Positions 23,681-48,285 of a stretch of DNA of 64,000 nucleotides are shown piece by piece. Below the pieces are notes generated by a model, which worked only from the letters and a program-made list of their open reading frames with translations, was not told the DNA's origin and searched no databases. Source of the DNA: Escherichia coli. Its GTDB lineage: Bacteria > Pseudomonadota > Gammaproteobacteria > Enterobacterales > Enterobacteriaceae. The position numbers and the translations under genes were made by a program. Numbering within the stretch: the stretch's first letter is position 1; each line of letters opens with the position of its first letter. The stretch lies in assembly GCF_003018255.1 (NCBI RefSeq), contig NZ_CP027440.1; one strand, given 5' to 3'.

Positions 23681-24388
23681 TTAAGGTCTCCTTAGCGCCT
23701 TATTGCGTAAGACTGCCGGAACTTAAATTTGCCTTCGCACATCAACCTGGCTTTACCCGTTTGTTATTTGGCTCGCCGCTCTGTGAAAGAGGGGAAAACC
23801 TGGGTACAGAGCTCTGGGCGCTTGCAGGTAAAGGATCCATTGATGACGAATAAATGGCGAATCAAGTACTTAGCAATCCGAATTATTAAACTTGTCTACC
23901 ACTAATAACTGTCCCGAATGAATTGGTCAATACTTCCACACTGTTACATAAGTTAATCTTAGGTGAAATACCGACTTCATAACTTTTACGCATTATATGC
24001 TTTTCCTGGTAATGTTTGTAACAACTTTGTTGAATGATTGTCAAATTAGATGATTAAAAATTAAATAAATGTTGTTATCGTGACCTGGATCACTGTTCAG
24101 GATAAAACCCGACAAACTATATGTAGGTTAATTGTAATGATTTTGTGAACGGCCTATACTGCCGCCAGGTCTCCGGAACACCCTGCAATCCCGAGCCACC
24201 CAGCGTTGTAACGTGTCGTTTTCGCATCTGGAAGCAGTGTTTTGCATGACGCGCAGTTATAGAAAGGACGCTGTCTGACCCGCAAGCAGACCGGAGGAAG
24301 GAAATCCCGACGTCTCCAGGTAACAGAAAGTTAACCTCTGTGCCCGTAGTCCCCAGGGAATAATAAGAACAGCATGTGGGCGTTATTC

Positions 24389-37009: not shown

Positions 37010-39643
37010 ATGAAAGCGGTATCTCGCGTTCACATCACCCCGCATATGCACTGGGATCGGGAGTGGTATTTCACCACCGAAGAGTCACGCATTCTGCTGG
37101 TCAATAATATGGAAGAGATCCTGTGCCGACTGGAACAGGACAACGAATACAAATATTACGTACTCGACGGGCAAACGGCGATCCTCGAAGATTATTTCGC
37201 GGTGAAACCGGAAAACAAAGACCGTGTGAAGAAACAGGTAGAAGCAGGCAAGTTGATTATCGGCCCCTGGTATACCCAGACCGATACCACGATTGTTTCT
37301 GCGGAATCCATCGTCCGTAATCTGATGTACGGAATGCGTGACTGCCTCACGTTTGGCGAGCCGATGAAAATAGGTTATTTACCAGATTCCTTTGGCATGT
37401 CCGGGCAACTGCCGCATATTTACAATGGATTTGGCATTACCCGCACCATGTTCTGGCGCGGATGTTCTGAGCGCCACGGTACTGATAAAACCGAGTTTTT
37501 GTGGCAAAGCAGTGACGGTAGCGAAGTGACGGCGCAGGTGCTGCCGCTGGGCTACGCCATCGGTAAGTACTTACCTGCCGACGAAGACGGATTACGCAAA
37601 CGCCTCGACAGTTATTTTGATGTGCTGGAAAAAGCGTCAGTAACCAAAGAGATTTTGCTGCCGAATGGTCATGACCAGATGCCATTGCAGCAAAATATCT
37701 TCGAAGTGATGGATAAGCTACGTGAGATCTACCCTCAACGTAAGTTTGTGATGAGCCGCTTTGAAGAGGTATTTGAGAAGATCGAAGCGCAGCGAGATAA
37801 TCTGGCAACCCTGAAAGGGGAATTTATTGATGGCAAATATATGCGCGTGCATCGCACCATCGGTTCTACGCGTATGGATATCAAAATTGCCCACGCGCGT
37901 ATTGAAAATAAGATTGTTAATCTGCTGGAACCGCTGGCAACGCTGGCCTGGACGTTGGGTTTTGAATACCACCACGGCTTGCTGGAGAAATTGTGGAAAG
38001 AAATTTTAAAAAACCACGCCCATGACAGCATCGGCTGCTGCTGTAGTGACAAAGTTCATCGCGAGATTGTCGCCCGTTTCGAACTGGCAGAAGACATGGC
38101 GGATAATCTGCTGCGTTTCTATATGCGTAAAATTGCCGATAACATGCCACAGAGTGATGCCGACAAACTTGTGCTGTTTAACCTGATGCCCTGGCCGCGG
38201 GAAGAAGTGATCAACACCACTGTGCGGCTGCGCGCCAGCCAGTTTAATTTGCGGGACGATCGCGGTCAGCCTGTACCGTATTTTATTCGCCATGCCCGTG
38301 AGATCGATCCTGGCCTAATCGATCGGCAAATCGTTCATTACGGTAATTATGATCCCTTTATGGAGTTTGATATTCAGATCAACCAGATTGTCCCTTCTAT
38401 GGGCTATCGCACGCTTTATATCGAAGCGAATCAGCCTGGCAACGTGATTGCGGCAAAAAGTGACGCTGAAGGGATACTGGAAAATGCTTTCTGGCAAATT
38501 GCGCTCAATGAGGATGGAACGCTACAACTGGTAGATAAAGACAGCGGTGTGCGCTATGACCGGGTGTTGCAAATTGAAGAAAGCTCTGATGATGGTGATG
38601 AATATGACTATTCACCCGCAAAAGAAGAGTGGGTAATTACTTCGGCGAACGCGAAACCGCAATGCGAGATTACTCATGAGGCCTGGCAGAGTAGGGCTGT
38701 TATCCGCTATGACATGGCGGTGCCGCGTAATCTGCATGAACGCAGCGCAAGACAATCCACTGGCAGAGTAGGGGTGGAGTTGGCTGTCACTCTGAGTGAT
38801 AACAGCAGGCGCATTGATGTGGATATCAACCTTGATAACCAGGCTGACGATCATCGCCTTCGCGTCCTGGTCCCTACACCTTTTAACACCGACAGTGTTC
38901 TGGCCGATACCCAGTTTGGTTCGCTAACGCGCCCCGTGAACGACAGTGCAATGAACAACTGGCAGCAAGAAGGCTGGAAAGAAGCGCCGGTTCCGGTATG
39001 GAATATGCTCAACTATGCTGCCTTACAGGAAGGGCGTAACGGTCTGGCTGTCTTTAGCGAAGGGCTACGTGAATATGAAGTCATCGGTGAAGAGAAGAAA
39101 ACCTTTGCCATTACGTTGCTGCGTGGCGTGGGCTTACTGGGGAAAGAAGATCTGCTTTTAAGGCCTGGACGTCCTTCAGGAATAAAAATGCCGGTGCCCG
39201 ATTCACAATTACGTGGCTCCTTTAGCTGCCGTCTGAGCTTATTTAGTTATACAGGTACGCCTTCGACCGCCGGTGTAGCCCAGCAGGCGCGCGCATGGCT
39301 GACGCCAGTACAGTGTTACAACAAAATCCCGTGGGATGCGATGAAGTTAAATAAAGCCGGATTCAATGTGCCGGAAAGCTATAGCTTGCTGAAAATGCCC
39401 CCTGTGGGATGCCTGATTAGCGCTCTTAAAAAAGCGGAAGACCGGCAAGAAGTGGTATTGCGACTGTTTAATCCGGCAGAATCGACAACCTGTGAGGCAA
39501 CTGTCGCGTTCAGTCGTGAGGTGATTTCATGTACGCAAACGATGATGGATGAAAGCATCAGCACAGCGGAAAGAGATAATTTAAAGGAACTGGGGGCATT
39601 TTTACCGGGGCAGTCACGGACATTTAGCTACCGCCTTGGCTGA
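37010..39643 (+). CDS. mngB: Alpha-mannosidase, glycoside hydrolase family 38 (877 aa)
   Basis: [38 protein letters not shown]... GH38 signature. Confidence 0.93.
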
Positions 39644-39681
39644 TTATTGCGCTAAAAGTGTATCTGAGGGGGGCAATAATT

Positions 39682-39787: not shown

Positions 39788-41185
39788 TTACCCCTTAAAC
39801 GTTAACCACGGTCGAAATCTGACCGCTGGCTGAATTAATCCGGCTTCTTGTTGGGCTTCGATAACCGGACCAATATCTTTATAAGCCGCTGGCGCTTCTT
39901 CAAAACGTCGTTCTTCGCGCAATGTGACGCATTGCCACGGCAGCGTTGACTCTTCAGTCGCGCGTGAGCGCATGGCCTGCCGACGCTGGCTGCGTCCTGC
40001 TCCGTGACTGCATGACCACAGCCACTCCGGGTTGCCGCAACCTACCGCAAGCCACGAATAATCGCCCATTGAACCGGGGATTAACGCCAGATTGCCCACT
40101 CGTGCCGGTGTTGCGCCTTTGCGATGAATATTCATTTCATGCTCGCGAAGGATGATGTTATGTGGCACATCCACCACCAGATGCGAATTGTCCTGATGAA
40201 AGAGATTGGCAAGACATACGCGCACCATTTCGGCAATTGTGACGCGATTTAACCATGCGTAACGCGCCGCCATTCCTATCGCTTGTAGATATTCCTCCGC
40301 CAGTCCGCCTGCCAGACCATATAACCCGCTTTGTGGATGTTTATGTCCGGTGGGCCATTCAGCACGGGCGCGATCCATCCAGCGTCTTCCGACGTAAAAG
40401 CCAACATCTCGCGATCCACTGTGGATCATCACCACAATATCGCCTGTTTTCAGCCCTTGTTGCCAGGCTACATGGCGATCAACCACGCTATCAACGACCT
40501 GAAGTTCAATAAAATGATTACCTGAACCCGGCGTACCCAGACAAGGATCGCGGAGTAATGCGCGGTCCGTTGCCTGCAGGGCGGGTGGGGCATAACGCGA
40601 ATGACTGTTATGCTCGTTAAGCCCAATGCAGCGGTCAATCTCTTGTACCATTCGGGGGATATTCGTGCGTATCCAGAGACCTTCTGATGGCAAGGTCGAC
40701 ACGCAATCTGCCGGTCCGCCATCAAAAAGCGCGGTGAACGCCTGTGCGGATAACGGAACATCGCGCTCATTTTGCAGTAGCACTTGCGTTAACCGCTGAG
40801 CGATGACGTCTTTATGCGCTTCGGCTTGCTCAAGTGTTAATCCGGTCGTCAGCAGCCGCATGCCACAAGAAATATCGGTGCCGATGGCGGCGGGAATGAC
40901 TAAATCCGGCGTTGAGGCCACCACCGCGCCAACGGGGACGCCATTGCCGGGATGAAAATCTGGCGTCGCGCACGTCTGGCGCACATAACCTGGGTGGTCT
41001 GGTAGCTTCACTTCTGCAAAATCAAGCAGTTGTGTTACTGCTTTTTCTTCCAGCGGCAGTTCGTCCGGCAGCAGTACGCGGGCACTGGCACCTGATGGAC
41101 GAGATAATGAAACAATATTGTTGGCGCGGGAAAGTTGGATCCCTTTGCGCAGAAAGGCTTTATCAAGCCTTGAAAGATGATGCAT
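39788..41185 (-). CDS. RtcB-family RNA 3-prime-phosphate ligase paralog (465 aa), orphan
   Basis: Conserved RtcB motifs: TPDFHPGNG, IPAAIGTDISCGMRLL, GTPGSGNHFIELQ, MIHSGSRDVG, IPGSMG, CSHGAGR, AYKDIGPVIEAQ; N-terminus about 30 aa longer than canonical RtcB; start codon uncertain. Confidence 0.85.
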   Translation of the reverse strand: MHHLSRLDKAFLRKGIQLSRANNIVSLSRPSGASARVLLPDELPLEEKAVTQLLDFAEVKLPDHPGYVRQTCATPDFHPGNGVPVGAVVASTPDLVIPAAIGTDISCGMRLLTTGLTLEQAEAHKDVIAQRLTQVLLQNERDVPLSAQAFTALFDGGPADCVSTLPSEGLWIRTNIPRMVQEIDRCIGLNEHNSHSRYAPPALQATDRALLRDPCLGTPGSGNHFIELQVVDSVVDRHVAWQQGLKTGDIVVMIHSGSRDVGFYVGRRWMDRARAEWPTGHKHPQSGLYGLAGGLAEEYLQAIGMAARYAWLNRVTIAEMVRVCLANLFHQDNSHLVVDVPHNIILREHEMNIHRKGATPARVGNLALIPGSMGDYSWLAVGCGNPEWLWSCSHGAGRSQRRQAMRSRATEESTLPWQCVTLREERRFEEAPAAYKDIGPVIEAQQEAGLIQPAVRFRPWLTFKG

Positions 41186-41490
41186 AACGCTGTCCTGAAA
41201 TATAGACGTTAAACAACCCCCTGTATGGCGAGGGTAATTTTGTCTTTCCGGTCAGCAGCCAGCAAAAGGGAAAGAAAACGCGCGTAGTGTATGTGGCGAT
41301 AGCAAGTGTTACAAGTGGTAAATCTGGCTTATTGTTAAAGAGGAATTATCTTTTGTGAAGTCTTTTAAGGCCATGACTCATTCAATTTAACCGGACATAG
41401 ATAATATATAACATAGGGTATCTAAATTTATCATTGTATACTTGTCATAATTCAAGTTGCATGTGCTGCATCGATGTTCGCTCACCCAGG

Positions 41491-42060
41491 TCACTTACTT
41501 ATGTAAGCTTCTGGAAATTCATTATTTGTTCCCTTCCTGCAACTTGACTTATTTAGAGTATATTCATGTATACACATCGAGATTTCAGCCAGCAGACGCG
41601 CATCTGGCGTGCCGTGGCGGATCTGTAGCGGTTTTTGCAGAGTTTCGGTGAGGCGACGGCAAGCTGCAACGCCGTGGTTAACGACCGGTAAACCGTTCAG
41701 TTTAGAGGTTCCGGCTTCGATGGATTTTTTAATCCCTACAGCCGCTTCTTCGTACCGATTCAGACGGGTATATGCATCGATGGTGCTCGGCAGCAGATCG
41801 CACTCTTCTTGTAGTGTTTTCAGTAGTTCGATGTGTTCGTCCATCAGCGCCACACCTGCGCGCGGTTGGCTAAGGGTTTTACCTTCCTTGTCTGCTTTCA
41901 ACAGCGCAAGAGAGAAGCGTTTATGCTCAGGAATGGTTTGTTGGTATTTAACGCCATCTTCAAAGTTTTCAACATCCTTGCCGGTTTCCCAGGTTTTCAG
42001 TACCTGTTGCCGCTCGGTCATGAATTCGTCATGGGTTAATTTCTTATTTCGAAGTTCCAT
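41491..42060 (-). pseudogene. glmE: Glutamate mutase E (epsilon) subunit, truncated: 189 codons versus about 480 in intact homologs
   Basis: [33 protein letters not shown]...[20 protein letters not shown]...[15 protein letters not shown]...[13 protein letters not shown] resembles the GlmE N-terminus; similarity ends near codon 165, then 24 unrelated codons and stop. Confidence 0.75.
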
Positions 42061-42078
42061 TGATTGCAGCCTTAATTG

Positions 42079-43467
42079 TTATAGGGTTAAGCATTGAATA
42101 CTGGTGCGCGCGGCGGCCAGCGGATCGACTCTGGCGACGTTTGCCAGCAGTGGTAATAGCCCCCGGGAATCGCGGTAATATTCAAATTCGGTCGGTAAGA
42201 GAATGCGTTTACCGTCGTCGTTTAACTCGCGGTATTTCAACCAGTGATGCATATCGAACTGACTGGCACGCGAGAGCCATCCGCCGGATCCGACGACTTT
42301 ACGCACGGTTGTCAGGTCACGTCCCATCTGTAAATCGACATTGCCGACGCAGGTGCAGACCTCTTTTTTGGTGCCCGCATGTCTTTCGGTGGCATAACCC
42401 ACACACAGTCCGGCCAGGACGGTATCGAAATATTTTTCTTCTGCATTCGCGGGTAAGTAGTCGGGATGAGCGACTAGATGACGGAGGTAATGATAAAAAG
42501 CGTCCAGCTGTGCGGGTTGCTGAGCAAAATTCACATTGACTAACTCTTTCGCACTTTCACCAACCACCATTGCCGAGACGCGCATTCCCAGATCTCCTTC
42601 CACCGTCCGTTTTACGAAGGGTTCCGGTACGCCATGTAAAACAGTGTCGGGCGAGAGCGTGTTGGCACTGGCGGAATAGACATCGGTGGTTGCGCCACCC
42701 ATGTCGATCAGCATGAACTCTTTCCAGCTGTGATCGACATTACTGATTGCCTTAACCAGTTCAAAGACTGTCCACGGTGTCGGCATTGGTTCTTCGCCTG
42801 TTTTATCAACAACGACATCCAGCCCTTTCCCTTTAACGATGCGTTTAAGGAATATGTCGCAGATAGCCTGGCGTGCAGCTAAAGGGTTCGGATGGTCAAG
42901 ATCGGGCAGAACGTTGTCGACGATGGTCAGGTCTTTATGCCCGAGGATCTCCTGCACCTCGTCCTGAATATCCCGGTTTCCGGCATAAATAATGGCGCAG
43001 TCGAGTTTGGATTCTGCCAACACACGGGCGTTATTCAGTCCGTAGCTTTCTTCTCCGCCATCGGTGCCGCCGGTGAACAAGAGAATATCGGGCTGCGTTT
43101 CTTCCAGTGCCTGGATATCACGGCGGTTCAGCTTGTAGGCGTAAGATTGCGCAATTTTAGCACCCGCAGAGTGAGCGGTTACTTTCGCGGTTTCCAGGGT
43201 GATAGAAGGCACCAATCCCATTGCGGCAACCGCCAGCCCACCTTTGGCAGAGGAGGAATACTTCAATGCAACCTCACCACTGTTTAACAGGGGGAGGGCA
43301 TCATCTACGTTTAACACCTGGTCCAGGCTGGAGAAAAACCCCTTCGCCAGATGATGGGTGGTGGTTGGGGTCAGTACGTGGTTAACCAACGTTAACGCGT
43401 CCCCCTCCCGGGCGAAGAGGGCTGCTTTGGTCCACGTCGATCCAATATCGACAGAGACGATTTGCAT
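42079..43467 (-). CDS. glmL: Glutamate mutase accessory protein GlmL/MutL-like (462 aa)
   Basis: [18 protein letters not shown]... actin/Hsp70-like ATPase fold; translationally coupled to glmS (TGATG overlap); placed between glmS and glmE as in clostridial operons. Confidence 0.75.
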   Translation of the reverse strand: MQIVSVDIGSTWTKAALFAREGDALTLVNHVLTPTTTHHLAKGFFSSLDQVLNVDDALPLLNSGEVALKYSSSAKGGLAVAAMGLVPSITLETAKVTAHSAGAKIAQSYAYKLNRRDIQALEETQPDILLFTGGTDGGEESYGLNNARVLAESKLDCAIIYAGNRDIQDEVQEILGHKDLTIVDNVLPDLDHPNPLAARQAICDIFLKRIVKGKGLDVVVDKTGEEPMPTPWTVFELVKAISNVDHSWKEFMLIDMGGATTDVYSASANTLSPDTVLHGVPEPFVKRTVEGDLGMRVSAMVVGESAKELVNVNFAQQPAQLDAFYHYLRHLVAHPDYLPANAEEKYFDTVLAGLCVGYATERHAGTKKEVCTCVGNVDLQMGRDLTTVRKVVGSGGWLSRASQFDMHHWLKYRELNDDGKRILLPTEFEYYRDSRGLLPLLANVARVDPLAAARTSIQCLTL

Positions 43468-43916
43468 CAGATTGCCTCTTCAAGAATACGAGTATCAACG
43501 TCATGACGTTGGTTGATATCGTGGGCCATCAGCTGACAAACATCTTCTAAGTCATGACTTGGGGCAAAGACGCGATCAAATCCCATCTCTTTGAATTTGG
43601 TTTCCACGTCAGCGAAGTCATGTTTTCCGACCACCAGGTTACCGCCCACATAGAGCAGGATGTCCCCCAGTCCACGCTCGATGCAGCGTTCGCGCATGCC
43701 CAGACAGTCGATATCGCCATGCCCATAGATAGAGGAGACGACAATCGCGTCAGCACCAGTTTCAATGGCAGCATCAATATATTCGTCCTGGCTGACCATT
43801 ACGCCCAGATTAATAACTCTGAAGTCATGGTTGCTAAAAACGCGGTCCAGAACTTTATTGCCTACTGCATGGCAGTCCGCGCCAATAACGCCAATCACAA
43901 GTGTTGCTTTCTTCAT
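43467..43916 (-). CDS. glmS: Glutamate mutase S (sigma) subunit, B12-binding (149 aa)
   Basis: [24 protein letters not shown]... with the DxHxxG cobalamin-binding motif; AGGA RBS 7 nt upstream of this ATG (the listed ORF extends 21 codons further upstream). Confidence 0.8.
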
Positions 43917-44463
43917 GGGTAATCCTTTGTAAGACAGAGAGTAAAATAAGTTACACACGTCGTATTTATGGCCGCTCATAACGGCACAGGTTTAATATCA
44001 CAGGAGTGTCTTTATCTGACCGTAATGTTGCAATTGATCTATTTTCAAAATGTCTTTCGGGAAATGATTGTTTAAAGTGTGTTTTCAAATTCTCATGTTA
44101 ATTCAGTGTGTTATGTCAACTAATGTCATGAATGTTAAATTTTTAAAATTAACTTGATTTGATGTATTGAGATAATTGTGATCAACTTCTAATTTGCATT
44201 TTAGTGATATGGGGTTAGCCATGAGTAAATGCATTTCATAAAAGTTAAGTCGAATTTCACTGCAATTCATCTCTGCTTAATGTAAAAATAATGTTGAAAA
44301 TAACAAATAATTAATGATTCATGCGAATTATGACCTTTGTTAGCTCTTTTGATTTTTCGTAAAAAAGAAAAGTACATGAAGGTGCTACCAGTACGAGAAA
44401 CGTTAATCAAAAGTTTTATTACGTCTGGCAATAACGCAGGCCATTTTTCGCGACAGGAGGGAT

Positions 44464-44886
44464 TTAATCAGTATAATCCTCATACAATAGGTCAGGATTT
44501 ACAGAACCGTTAACGGGGTTTTGGTGTTGAAATTTAGAAATGGTGGAGTCAATCAATGAAGACAGTATCGAAAAAATGACTGTGTCAGAATTAATTTCAA
44601 TTAATCCTTCTCGTTGTTGACCAAAAAAGATATTTATCTTGATTTCATTTGTACTACGGAAATCAATATGTAGTAATTTTTGATCGCTGAGATTTTCTGT
44701 TTCATAAATGTTTTTGGCGATAGTCGGATGTATTGATGCCAGACATCTGCTCAGATAAGCCAGATCCTTTAGGGAACACCCCGCTGAGTAGAGGATGTCA
44801 GAGAATTTTTGTGTGTCAACTGTTGGCTCTGAAGCGTATGTTGCATTGACTGGAAGGGTGTTGAAGGAGATTTGAGATGGGATCAT
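44464..44886 (-). CDS. Hypothetical protein (140 aa), small and acidic, low GC
   Basis: Intact ORF MIPSQISFNTLPVNATYASEPTVDTQKF...; no recognisable motif; sits in an AT-rich segment of the island. Confidence 0.5.
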   Translation of the reverse strand: MIPSQISFNTLPVNATYASEPTVDTQKFSDILYSAGCSLKDLAYLSRCLASIHPTIAKNIYETENLSDQKLLHIDFRSTNEIKINIFFGQQREGLIEINSDTVIFSILSSLIDSTISKFQHQNPVNGSVNPDLLYEDYTD

Positions 44887-44966
44887 TATTTAAATCTTTC
44901 CGTGAGTAATAAAAATTAATCCCCGGGCATTGTTTAGTAATATTTGCCACAGGGGATATATAAAAA

Positions 44967-45911
44967 TTAAAGTATTTGATTGGCATCGGTTAACTGATCA
45001 ATAACCAGTGCCAGATTGGTAAACATTTTGAAAAAGCGATACTGGCTCGGAATATCTCTTTCAAAGACGAAACATTCAATGTCATTGTTTGAAAAATAAA
45101 GGACTAGTGATGCTGATTCGTCAGGAAAAATATGGAAATATATCTGGTTACCAGAAGGAGGATAGTCCAGAAGAAGGGTATCTTTGCCCGTCACATACCT
45201 GTTGTGGTCGTGGATGCTGCGCTCACACTTCATCAGAGGTGTCATGATACTCATGTATTCATCTGATGTTAATATATTAAAATCACCATCCATTTTAAAG
45301 AAACGATAAAGTAACAGTACATCCTCTTGCGTAACCGGTTCGTTTGTTTTTAGAGGGAAATAAGTGGGAACCAGAAGATGAGGTTCTAATCTATTTTGTT
45401 GAGCGCTATAACTAAATTTGAACATAAATTCCGGATCGCTCATCAATTGAGCGACATAATTATGCCTGGCTTCAAAAATTTTAACTTTTATCAGGTTAAA
45501 TAAGTCTGTTTCGTCATCCTGTATTAAAAGACATTGGCCATAGCAGCCAGGCTTTTTTTCATTATAAGCAGAAACGGTTATTCTGTCAGGAGTGTCAACG
45601 TTATATCCAAAAGCCAGATAGTGACCTTCCTCATCGAGATTTGTTTCCAGGTTATTTAAATTCATCACATGAAGTGTTTGCAATGCTGATTCAATGAGCT
45701 GTTGACTCTCTGAGGTAAATGTTTCGCGCTGCGTTGTATAAAGTGTATCGATTCCAACGACTATCCGATGTGGGTCAAGGATGGCGGCAATCATCTTTAT
45801 TACCTGCACAGTCATGGGTGATGTCATTGATTCTTTATCTGTTTTTAGAGGATCATTAGATGGCCAACCTGAGAAGCGATTGACAGCAGAACTGATAATA
45901 TCAGGACTCAT
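44967..45911 (-). CDS. Hypothetical protein (314 aa), low GC
   Basis: Intact ORF MSPDIISSAVNRFSGWPSNDPLKTDKESM...; GAGG RBS 8 nt upstream of ATG; no signal peptide or TM helix evident; no family recognised. Confidence 0.6.
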   Translation of the reverse strand: MSPDIISSAVNRFSGWPSNDPLKTDKESMTSPMTVQVIKMIAAILDPHRIVVGIDTLYTTQRETFTSESQQLIESALQTLHVMNLNNLETNLDEEGHYLAFGYNVDTPDRITVSAYNEKKPGCYGQCLLIQDDETDLFNLIKVKIFEARHNYVAQLMSDPEFMFKFSYSAQQNRLEPHLLVPTYFPLKTNEPVTQEDVLLLYRFFKMDGDFNILTSDEYMSIMTPLMKCERSIHDHNRYVTGKDTLLLDYPPSGNQIYFHIFPDESASLVLYFSNNDIECFVFERDIPSQYRFFKMFTNLALVIDQLTDANQIL

Positions 45912-46365
45912 AGCAGCAACCTCATTGTAATCAAGCGAGGCGCTGAGCGTACTCGGCTATAGAAAAACTAACTTGCAAAAATCGCTCATTTTTCATTTAT
46001 CAGGCGAAAGTGGTCTCTGTTCACTCAGAAACAATCACTCCCGCTAAGTCATACCTGTTTCATCGATACATTTAAGTGATTATTACTAATGAAACAATAA
46101 CATAATGGGCTTACGGCCGGTGCTCATAAACGCAACAATCAATTAACTTTGATAAAAATATGTTATGTAAAATAGCAACAAATTGGCTAATCTAATCAAT
46201 TGGTATTATAAAAAGTGGATAAGGCGGTTCTGTTAAATAAAACACTGGTTTTTTATCTATACCTTTTCATTGTAATAATTGTGTTGCATAAATATTTCAC
46301 AATAAATTAACAATAAAATCACCAATGATCTATGGTTTATACATAATTAACATATTTGGTTGATT

Positions 46366-46379
46366 TTGATATAAATCAA
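46366..46379. promoter_or_regulatory. FNR/CRP-type palindromic site in the cydA upstream region
   Basis: Perfect TTGAT-ATAA-ATCAA (TTGAT N4 ATCAA) about 340 bp upstream of cydA in an AT-rich leader. Confidence 0.55.
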
Positions 46380-46716
46380 TTTTTAATTCTTGAAAAAAAT
46401 CTGCAAAACACGATAAATTGTCGTAGATCAAATTGGTGAGATCGTGACAATTTCGCTATAAATTGATCACTGTCGAAAAATGCAAATTTGCTCAATAAAA
46501 ACCTGTTTATTGTAAGGATTTTGCGGCGTAATATAATTACGGGATCAATTTGGTTTATTCATTAACACATTTGTAACTTTTTTATCATTGTCTTTTCCTC
46601 TTTTGATGAAATGGCAACGATAGAGGCGAGCAAATAATTTTGTATTGGGGCATGCGTGTGACCCTTTCTAACGGGGTTCACTCTCGGAGTCTTCATGCGA
46701 TGAGCAAGGAGTCATG

Positions 46717-48285
46717 ATGTTAGATATAGTCGAACTGTCGCGCTTACAGTTTGCCTTGACCGCGATGTACCACTTCCTTTTTGTGCCACTGACGCTCGGT
46801 ATGGCGTTCCTGCTGGCCATTATGGAAACGGTCTACGTCCTTTCCGGCAAACAGATTTATAAAGATATGACCAAGTTCTGGGGCAAGTTGTTTGGTATCA
46901 ACTTCGCTCTGGGTGTGGCTACCGGTCTGACCATGGAGTTCCAGTTCGGGACTAACTGGTCTTACTATTCCCACTATGTAGGGGATATCTTCGGTGCGCC
47001 GCTGGCAATCGAAGGTCTGATGGCCTTCTTCCTCGAATCCACCTTTGTAGGTCTGTTCTTCTTCGGTTGGGATCGTCTGGGTAAAGTTCAGCATATGTGT
47101 GTCACCTGGCTGGTGGCGCTCGGTTCAAACCTGTCCGCACTGTGGATTCTGGTTGCGAACGGCTGGATGCAAAACCCAATCGCGTCCGATTTCAACTTTG
47201 AAACTATGCGTATGGAGATGGTGAGCTTCTCCGAGCTGGTGCTTAACCCGGTTGCTCAGGTGAAATTCGTTCACACTGTAGCGTCTGGTTATGTGACTGG
47301 CGCGATGTTCATCCTCGGTATCAGCGCATGGTATATGCTGAAAGGTCGTGACTTCGCCTTCGCTAAACGCTCTTTTGCTATCGCTGCCAGCTTCGGTATG
47401 GCTGCCGTTCTGTCTGTTATTGTTCTGGGTGATGAATCTGGTTACGAAATGGGCGACGTGCAGAAAACCAAACTGGCTGCTATTGAAGCCGAGTGGGAAA
47501 CGCAACCTGCGCCTGCTGCCTTTACTCTGTTCGGCATTCCTGATCAGGAAGAGGAGACGAACAAATTTGCGATCCAGATCCCTTACGCGCTGGGCATCAT
47601 TGCAACGCGTTCCGTGGATACTCCAGTTATCGGCCTGAAAGAACTGATGGTGCAGCATGAAGAACGCATTCGTAACGGGATGAAGGCGTACTCTCTGCTC
47701 GAGCAACTGCGTTCTGGTTCTACCGACCAGGCGGTTCGTGACCAGTTCAATAGCATGAAGAAAGACCTCGGTTACGGTCTGCTGCTGAAACGCTATACGC
47801 CAAACGTGGCTGATGCGACTGAAGCGCAGATTCAACAGGCAACCAAAGACTCCATTCCGCGTGTAGCGCCGCTGTACTTCGCGTTCCGTATCATGGTGGC
47901 GTGTGGCTTCCTGCTGCTGGCAATCATCGCGCTCTCTTTCTGGAGTGTCATCCGCAACCGCATTGGCGAGAAAAAATGGCTGCTGCGCGCCGCGCTGTAC
48001 GGTATTCCGCTGCCGTGGATTGCTGTAGAAGCGGGCTGGTTCGTGGCTGAATATGGTCGCCAACCGTGGGCTATCGGTGAAGTGCTGCCGACAGCTGTGG
48101 CGAACTCGTCACTGACCGCAGGCGATCTCATCTTCTCAATGGTGCTGATTTGCGGCCTGTATACCCTGTTCCTGGTGGCAGAATTGTTCTTAATGTTCAA
48201 ATTTGCACGCCTCGGCCCAAGCAGCCTGAAAACCGGTCGCTATCACTTTGAGCAGTCTTCCACGACTACTCAGCCGGCACGCTAA
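46717..48285 (+). CDS. cydA: Cytochrome bd-I ubiquinol oxidase subunit I (522 aa)
   Basis: [41 protein letters not shown]... Confidence 0.97.

Follow-up and report, generated by a model that had tools for sequence, protein, structure and literature searches.

The 805-bp intergenic region at positions 45912-46716 of the window, by which we mean the whole 64,000-nucleotide stretch of Escherichia coli DNA that was analysed, is very probably (about 0.9) the oxygen-responsive regulatory region of cydABX-ybgE (cytochrome bd-I), present here in an allele that is not that of K-12. The cydAB control region with a matching FNR site is already known, and since our analysis re-identifies this textbook region, the assignment itself matters little beyond an annotation check and the right edge of the neighboring island. 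The region runs from an island ORF on the minus strand to cydA on the plus strand, and is the divergent intergenic region common to both. An earlier note on this DNA had given the region these limits and called it AT-rich, both of which were correct, as its G+C content is 33.0% vs. 51.2% for the whole window. The G+C content is 27.9% in 46100-46550, and the AT-rich tract (mostly 29-40% G+C) is unbroken from ~43850 to 46600. The entire region is 100% identical to that of strain JNE23-011, where it is directly upstream of cydA-cydB-cydX-ybgE. Its larger part, 46076-46716, is also found in E. coli strains with another upstream neighbor, while 45912-46075 is found in island-carrying strains only. 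The annotated ATG of cydA is at 46717, and there is a further in-frame ATG at 46714. The features that delimit the region are:

44967-45911, minus strand: island ORF of 314 aa, without a family match
46076-46716, unstranded: cydA regulatory module, common to all alleles of the W family (the family of the window, see below)
46717-48285, plus strand: cydA, 522 aa, protein identical to K-12 WP_000884361.1, followed by cydB, cydX and ybgE

The perfect FNR-type palindrome that the earlier note had placed at 46366-46379 is at exactly that position, with the sequence TTGATATAAATCAA. The note had proposed an alignment with the K-12 cydA promoter region as a check, and we conducted a pairwise alignment of the window with a K-12-type reference, strain EPI300 (locus L001), which comprises mngB, an 846-bp intergenic region and cydA. 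In this alignment the palindrome falls column for column on the K-12 sequence TTGATATTTATCAA. The latter, at U00096.2 770333, is the predicted site at the cydA FNR ChIP-seq peak, and a second predicted K-12 FNR site, TTGTTCTCGATCAA, at 770385, belongs to the same peak (Myers et al., 2013, PMC3688515, Table S6). The dyad starts 351 nt before the ATG in the window and 348 nt before it in K-12, and its spacer is ATAA in the window vs. ATTT in K-12. These comparisons support the assignment of 46366-46379 as a putative FNR operator, orthologous to the K-12 site under the ChIP-seq peak. The FNR sites of the window are:

46366-46379, unstranded: perfect upstream FNR dyad, TTGATATAAATCAA, orthologous to the K-12 site located at -53.5 relative to P1
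46418-46431, unstranded: downstream FNR site TTGTCGTAGATCAA, orthologue of K-12 TTGTTCTCGATCAA, overlapping the predicted P1 start (-1.5)

The centers of the two dyads (46372.5 and 46424.5) are 52 bp apart, a spacing identical to that in K-12, with the dyads at -348 and -296 from the ATG in K-12 and at -351 and -299 in the window. To score them we used a PWM made from the 61 other ChIP-associated sites of Myers et al. (2013), from which the cydA sites had been left out. The upstream site scored 20.2 bits in the window vs. 16.6 bits in K-12, and the downstream site 14.1-14.6 bits vs. 13.2-13.8 bits, while no further FNR match of at least 9 bits was present within 45912-46716. The palindrome is also the sole perfect TTGAT-N4-ATCAA in the 64 kb, where 0.06 would be expected per window; for the 805-bp region the expectation is 0.007, and at least one perfect dyad was obtained in 36 of 5,000 dinucleotide-preserving shuffles.

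The position of the FNR site relative to transcription allowed us to place the main regulated promoter. Table 1 of Myers et al. (2013, PMC3688515) gives the cydAB FNR site a position of -53.5 relative to the TSS, which puts the K-12 TSS at 770393, 288 nt before the ATG, and the second FNR site at -1.5. By alignment to this TSS, the P1 start is expected near 46426 in the window, and a consensus match, TTGAAA-18-TAAATT, is found at 46390-46419. The earlier description of a long cydA leader consequently holds in part only, as the K-12 P1 alignment indicates that ~291 nt would be transcribed from this promoter and that the remainder is upstream regulatory DNA. The promoter features of the window are:

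46390-46426, plus strand: inferred promoter P1, with -35 TTGAAA (46390-46395), -10 TAAATT (46414-46419) and start at ~46426 (-291 from the ATG)
46451-46540, plus strand: most conserved core, 93-95% identical to K-12 and kept across genera
46510-46537, plus strand: promoter-like TTGTAA-16-TATAAT, predicted start ~46544 (-173)

Multiple TSSs have been reported for K-12 cydA (Park et al., 2013, PMC3798270). In K-12, an anaerobic sigma-70 ChIP peak is located at 770509 (Myers et al., 2013, PMC3688515), -172 from the cydA ATG, and the predicted start at ~46544 (-173) in the window coincides with this position. A simple promoter consensus scan found four matches vs. 4.8 expected in shuffles, and hence no enrichment, and two of its matches are at the positions of K-12 P1 and of this sigma-70 peak. 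Cotter and colleagues in 1997 and Govantes and colleagues in 2000 reportedly described K-12 cydAB control by way of five promoters, with a pair of FNR sites, with ArcA sites and with H-NS.

Three ArcA binding regions are located upstream of K-12 cydA, namely cydA1 (U00096.2 770081-770111), cydA2 (770260-770311) and cydA3 (770526-770556) (Park et al., 2013, PMC3798270). We searched the window with a PWM derived from the 112 ArcA boxes of the same study. Seven boxes of at least 14 bits were found in 45912-46716 vs. 0.20 expected (none of 500 shuffles reached this number), and four of the six boxes of at least 16 bits in the whole 64 kb fall within the 805-bp region. The other two are a strong match (at least 19 bits, AATGTAAAAATAATGTTGAA context) at 44280-44297 on the plus strand, in the AT-rich gap between glmS and a 140-aa ORF, and one at 24016, the known sdhC ArcA site, which is in the training set. 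The ArcA boxes of the region are:

46132-46166, unstranded: distal candidate ArcA boxes, 14.3 and 17.7 bits, at -585 and -568
46270-46353, unstranded: ArcA-box cluster, equivalent to K-12 cydA2
46270-46287, plus strand: cluster box, 14.3 bits
46296-46313, minus strand: cluster box, 21.0 bits
46307-46324, minus strand: cluster box, 14.9 bits
46336-46353, minus strand: cluster box, 16.5 bits
46562-46579, minus strand: promoter-proximal ArcA box AAGTTACAAATGTGTTAA, 19.0 bits, equivalent to K-12 cydA3

These direct-repeat boxes occupy three zones that parallel cydA1, cydA2 and cydA3 of K-12. Measured from the ATG, the boxes of the window are at -585 and -568 in the distal zone (K-12 PWM matches at -635 and -590), at -447, -421, -410 and -381 in the cluster zone (K-12 at -418, -407 and -387), and at -155 in the promoter-proximal zone (K-12 at -152), the K-12 matches at -590, -418 and -152 being the boxes of cydA1, cydA2 and cydA3, respectively. 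The best cluster box scores 21.0 bits in the window vs. 13.0 bits in K-12, but as the K-12 cydA boxes are in the ArcA training set, the K-12 scores are partly circular, and the window scores are less affected. The distal candidates are at a distance like that of the K-12 cydA1 box (-590), but the DNA there is unalignable with K-12; they are kept in all W sub-alleles. With FNR and ArcA sites that are orthologous to those of K-12 and at K-12-like positions, the earlier reading of the region as the FNR/ArcA-controlled cydAB region is supported.

A comparison with other genera provided a natural footprint of the bases that matter, as did the comparison of alleles within E. coli described below. 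Our sample consisted of cydA loci of other Enterobacterales obtained by a CydA search of genome contigs, among the matches listed, without Escherichia, Shigella and Salmonella. In each genus among the matches listed, homology upstream of cydA ends at about -350 to -420. Twelve of the 13 other Enterobacteriaceae among the matches listed have a perfect FNR dyad at -341 to -355 with flanking bases that vary, and 11 of these 13, again among the matches listed, have the perfect dyad paired, at a spacing of 52 bp, with a second site on its downstream side (about -350 and -298, respectively). FNR pairs with a spacing of 50-52 bp are also present in Yersinia, Brenneria, Arsenophonus and Vibrio, among the matches listed. 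The elements conserved across genera are both FNR dyads, the TTAACA ArcA cores, TTGTAA-16-TATAAT and the last ~75 nt of the leader, and the DNA between the conserved site cores varies.

As the FNR and ArcA sites are orthologous and conserved, and the promoter and leader are conserved as well, these data support the standard ArcA/H-NS/FNR model for the window. Under microaerobic conditions, H-NS silencing of the AT-rich cydA upstream DNA would be relieved by ArcA-P bound to direct-repeat boxes, some of them in the promoter region and others upstream of it, which is consistent with the finding that at K-12 cydA ArcA acts by disrupting H-NS repression (Park et al., 2013, PMC3798270). In full anaerobiosis, P1 transcription would be partly repressed by FNR bound at two positions, -53.5 (the perfect dyad at 46366-46379) and -1.5, where the weaker dyad at 46418-46431 overlaps the P1 start. 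Expression of cydA is proposed to peak at low oxygen as a result of ArcA derepression and anaerobic FNR repression, and additional promoters would be situated downstream in the conserved core at 46451-46540. We infer protein occupancy, TSSs and regulatory output in the window strain by carrying them over from K-12. At yfiD, FNR is mainly an activator, whereas FNR represses the cydA promoter, whose expression still rises anaerobically. The combination of a strong consensus dyad and a weaker second dyad nearby is one that cydA has in common with yfiD, ompW and ydfZ (Myers et al., 2013, Table S6), and ArcA co-regulation is stated for cydA, yfiD and ompW (Park et al., 2013, PMC3798270).

The allele of the window differs strongly from that of K-12, a point that the earlier note does not make. 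Identity between the two is 76-80% over the last 380-420 bp of the region, and farther upstream they are unalignable. The cydA gene that follows is 98.9% identical to that of K-12 at the nucleotide level (17 differences, with an identical protein), and the final 74 nt of the leader are identical in the window and K-12. The upstream neighbors also differ, as K-12 cydAB has mngB and the window has the island ORF on the opposite strand. From cydA outward, identity to K-12 changes as follows:

46643 into cydA: 100%
46589-46648: 42-57%
46451-46529: 93-95%
46331-46450: 65-75%
upstream of ~46330: unalignable

When 5,426 complete E. coli genomes were searched with the region by megablast, the match in most of them was confined to query positions 430-805, at ~80% identity. 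The corresponding query with the K-12 region gave a strictly bimodal result, with 3,177 genomes at 99% identity or above, four at 90-99% and 2,244 below 90%. We refer to the K-12 allele as K and to that of the window as W; their shares among complete E. coli genomes are ~59% and ~41%, respectively. One O157:H7 genome, ~81% identical to the K-12 region, is on the non-K side. The W family is found in two contexts, the island type (1,138 genomes), which includes a version with a full methylaspartate-pathway island (L005), or with a TPR-protein gene upstream, with or without mngRAB. The K-12 cydAB model (FNR, ArcA, H-NS and five promoters) was therefore built on an allele that is absent from ~41% of sequenced E. 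coli, including O157:H7.

Over -420 to -1, K and W are 76% identical, W and Citrobacter 78-80%, and K and Citrobacter 73-74%; the distance between the two E. coli alleles is thus about that between either of them and another genus. In a neighbor-joining tree, K forms a long branch that is a weak sister to W. The binding-site cores and their layout are kept between K and W, but the intervening sequence is not. The distal 470 bp of the K-12 region (L001 2531-3000) has no homologue in the window, TPR-type strains or outgroups, among the matches listed. This segment holds the most enriched ArcA ChIP peak (cydA1, -600 to -570) and an aerobic sigma-70 peak (-642) in K-12, and as W is without it, the mechanism may not be the same in its distal part. 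In some RefSeq records, a hypothetical protein is annotated in this K-12-specific segment. Within W, sub-alleles whose flanks are 95-100% identical diverge by 25-40% in a ~100-bp patch (46260-46355) that covers the ArcA cluster; the TTAACA cores are invariant inside this hypervariable patch.

On the basis of these comparisons, the K/W dimorphism appears to fit the known pattern of switched intergenic regions. The Piggy paper (Thorpe et al., 2018, PMC5890482), which refers to Oren et al. (2014), describes switched or horizontally replaced intergenic regions before core genes and associates such switches with expression differences elsewhere. The likeness is that cydA, itself 98.9% identical, lies behind discrete and highly divergent alternative alleles that are almost without intermediates. 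Two differences are that the cydA alleles are still homologous over the regulatory core with the same binding-site architecture, and that their divergence is tied to an adjacent hypervariable segment (mngRAB, TPR gene, methylaspartate island). An island-insertion scar was rejected as the sole cause of the divergence, since the divergence runs through the regulatory module to -75 and mngB beyond is also divergent. In the literature searched, we found no paper on cydA promoter polymorphism or on a switched cydA region, which is weak evidence of novelty.

A reading that goes further, and that we regard as possible but doubtful, is that W is not functionally equivalent to K, with its stronger predicted FNR and ArcA sites and its replaced distal segment giving another oxygen set-point or amplitude. 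Equally tentative is its corollary that both alleles persist through that difference or through linkage to an accessory cassette. Several observations are consistent with non-equivalence: the scores of W exceed those of K-12 (20.2 vs. 16.6 bits for FNR and 21.0 vs. 13.0 bits for the best ArcA-cluster box), the K-12 distal 470 bp with the strongest ArcA and aerobic sigma-70 peaks lacks a W homologue, the distribution is bimodal (3,177/2,244, with four between), and expression differences are linked to switched intergenic regions elsewhere (PMC5890482). However, conserved logic is suggested by the unchanged spacing of all mapped site types, PWM scores poorly predict occupancy, and the divergence, which mngB also shows, could have arisen neutrally by hitch-hiking with a recombination hot spot. 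We would place below even odds, and advance only cautiously, the proposal that K and W are two ancient haplogroups with the same FNR/ArcA skeleton but with different predicted site strengths, ArcA patch (46260-46355) and distal segment, which may shift the oxygen set-point. If this were true, cytochrome bd-I, a major gut-colonization determinant, would be regulated differently in K-12-like and in O157:H7-like/TPR-context strains, and K-12 promoter studies would not transfer to 41% of E. coli.

The divergent arrangement raises the question of whether the region also serves the island. As the 314-aa ORF is divergent, its promoter must be in the left part of the intergenic region. That the FNR and ArcA sites also or mainly control this ORF, and that the island genes are consequently oxygen-regulated, is in our estimation improbable. 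The intergenic region is shared, the AT-rich DNA is continuous into the island and there is a strong ArcA-like box within the island at ~44280, but the FNR dyad is 455 bp from the start codon of the island ORF and the sites keep their distance to cydA in strains and genera without the island. In addition, the island-specific segment 45912-46075 has no FNR match of at least 9 bits and no ArcA match of at least 10 bits. The suggestion in the earlier note that the island ORFs may be under the nucleoid-protein influence of the cydA region is plausible, as judged from sequence; in the table of Myers et al. (2013, PMC3688515), the K-12 cydA FNR sites are without enrichment of H-NS, Fis or IHF.

The second ORF of the island next to this region is:

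44464-44886, minus strand: island ORF of 140 aa, AT-rich

The 314-aa and 140-aa ORFs are annotated as hypothetical in RefSeq and are beside methylaspartate-mutase genes in every island-type locus examined; searches of Pfam, NCBIfam and PADLOC returned nothing significant for either. The island of the window (~39790-43980) is decayed, its methylaspartate mutase E being a truncated pseudogene, and also includes an RtcB-family gene. The island of THO-010 (L005) has the full set of mutase S, L and E, methylaspartate ammonia-lyase, an AtuA-like protein, DUF4387 and a dicarboxylate symporter. The sucD-cydA interval of E. coli has at least four different gene contents: mngRAB, mngRAB with TPR, TPR, and mngRAB with the island. 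The mngB gene of the window (37117-39646) is 93.6% identical to that of K-12 and ~84% identical to that of a TPR-type strain, and since mngB is also unusually divergent, the cydA control region is considered to be at the edge of a hypervariable sucD-cydA interval.

The weakest alternative, that the palindrome arose by chance in AT-rich DNA or is another kind of site (CRP, H-NS nucleation) and not a functional FNR operator, has in its favor the 28-33% G+C of the region and the many perfect or near-perfect genomic FNR motifs that are unbound in vivo (Myers et al., PMC3688515), but we consider it exceedingly unlikely, as only 0.007 such dyads are expected per region, the K-12 orthologue is under an FNR ChIP-seq peak and 12 of 13 other Enterobacteriaceae, among the matches listed, have a perfect dyad at the same distance; conservation and the K-12 ChIP data contradict chance, and the TTGAT half-sites are FNR-type and wrong for a CRP site (TGTGA-N6-TCACA).

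Two conserved elements without an Rfam entry are present in the cydA 5' UTR, downstream of the FNR and ArcA sites:

46658-46681, plus strand: 5'-UTR hairpin (GUGACCC / GGGU-U-CAC) at -59 to -36, with covariation among Enterobacteriaceae
46706-46711, plus strand: Shine-Dalgarno AAGGAG, inside a ~30-nt leader nearly invariant across Enterobacterales

In 12 Enterobacteriaceae sequences, 81% of the cells of the hairpin are paired vs. 69% in shuffles (0 of 500), with compensatory changes in six of the eight pairs, while controls in which the hairpin was slid gave 41-57%; these statistics are optimistic, since the hairpin was drawn by eye from the same sequences. Yersinia, Hafnia, Serratia and Edwardsiella also have hairpins at this position, of unrelated sequence. 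An Rfam scan of 45500-47000 at an E-value of 1 or below returned no family, and we found no paper on a cydA 5'-UTR element, the Salmonella report on CsrA being the only related one. The ~30-nt leader GAGTCTTCATGCGATGAGCAAGGAGTCATG (46685-46716) shows almost no variation across taxa as far apart as E. coli, Yersinia and Providencia. RNAalifold pairs CUUC with GGAG and UGC with GCA in this leader, a fold that sequesters the Shine-Dalgarno and is invariant, without covariation; folded as a single sequence, the leader is no more stable than shuffles (z = 0.6). Two GGA motifs ~20 nt apart are present in 46685-46716 and CsrA is reported to activate cydABX translation 3.5-fold in Salmonella (PMC6347204), which together make this leader a candidate CsrA site that we offer as a lead.
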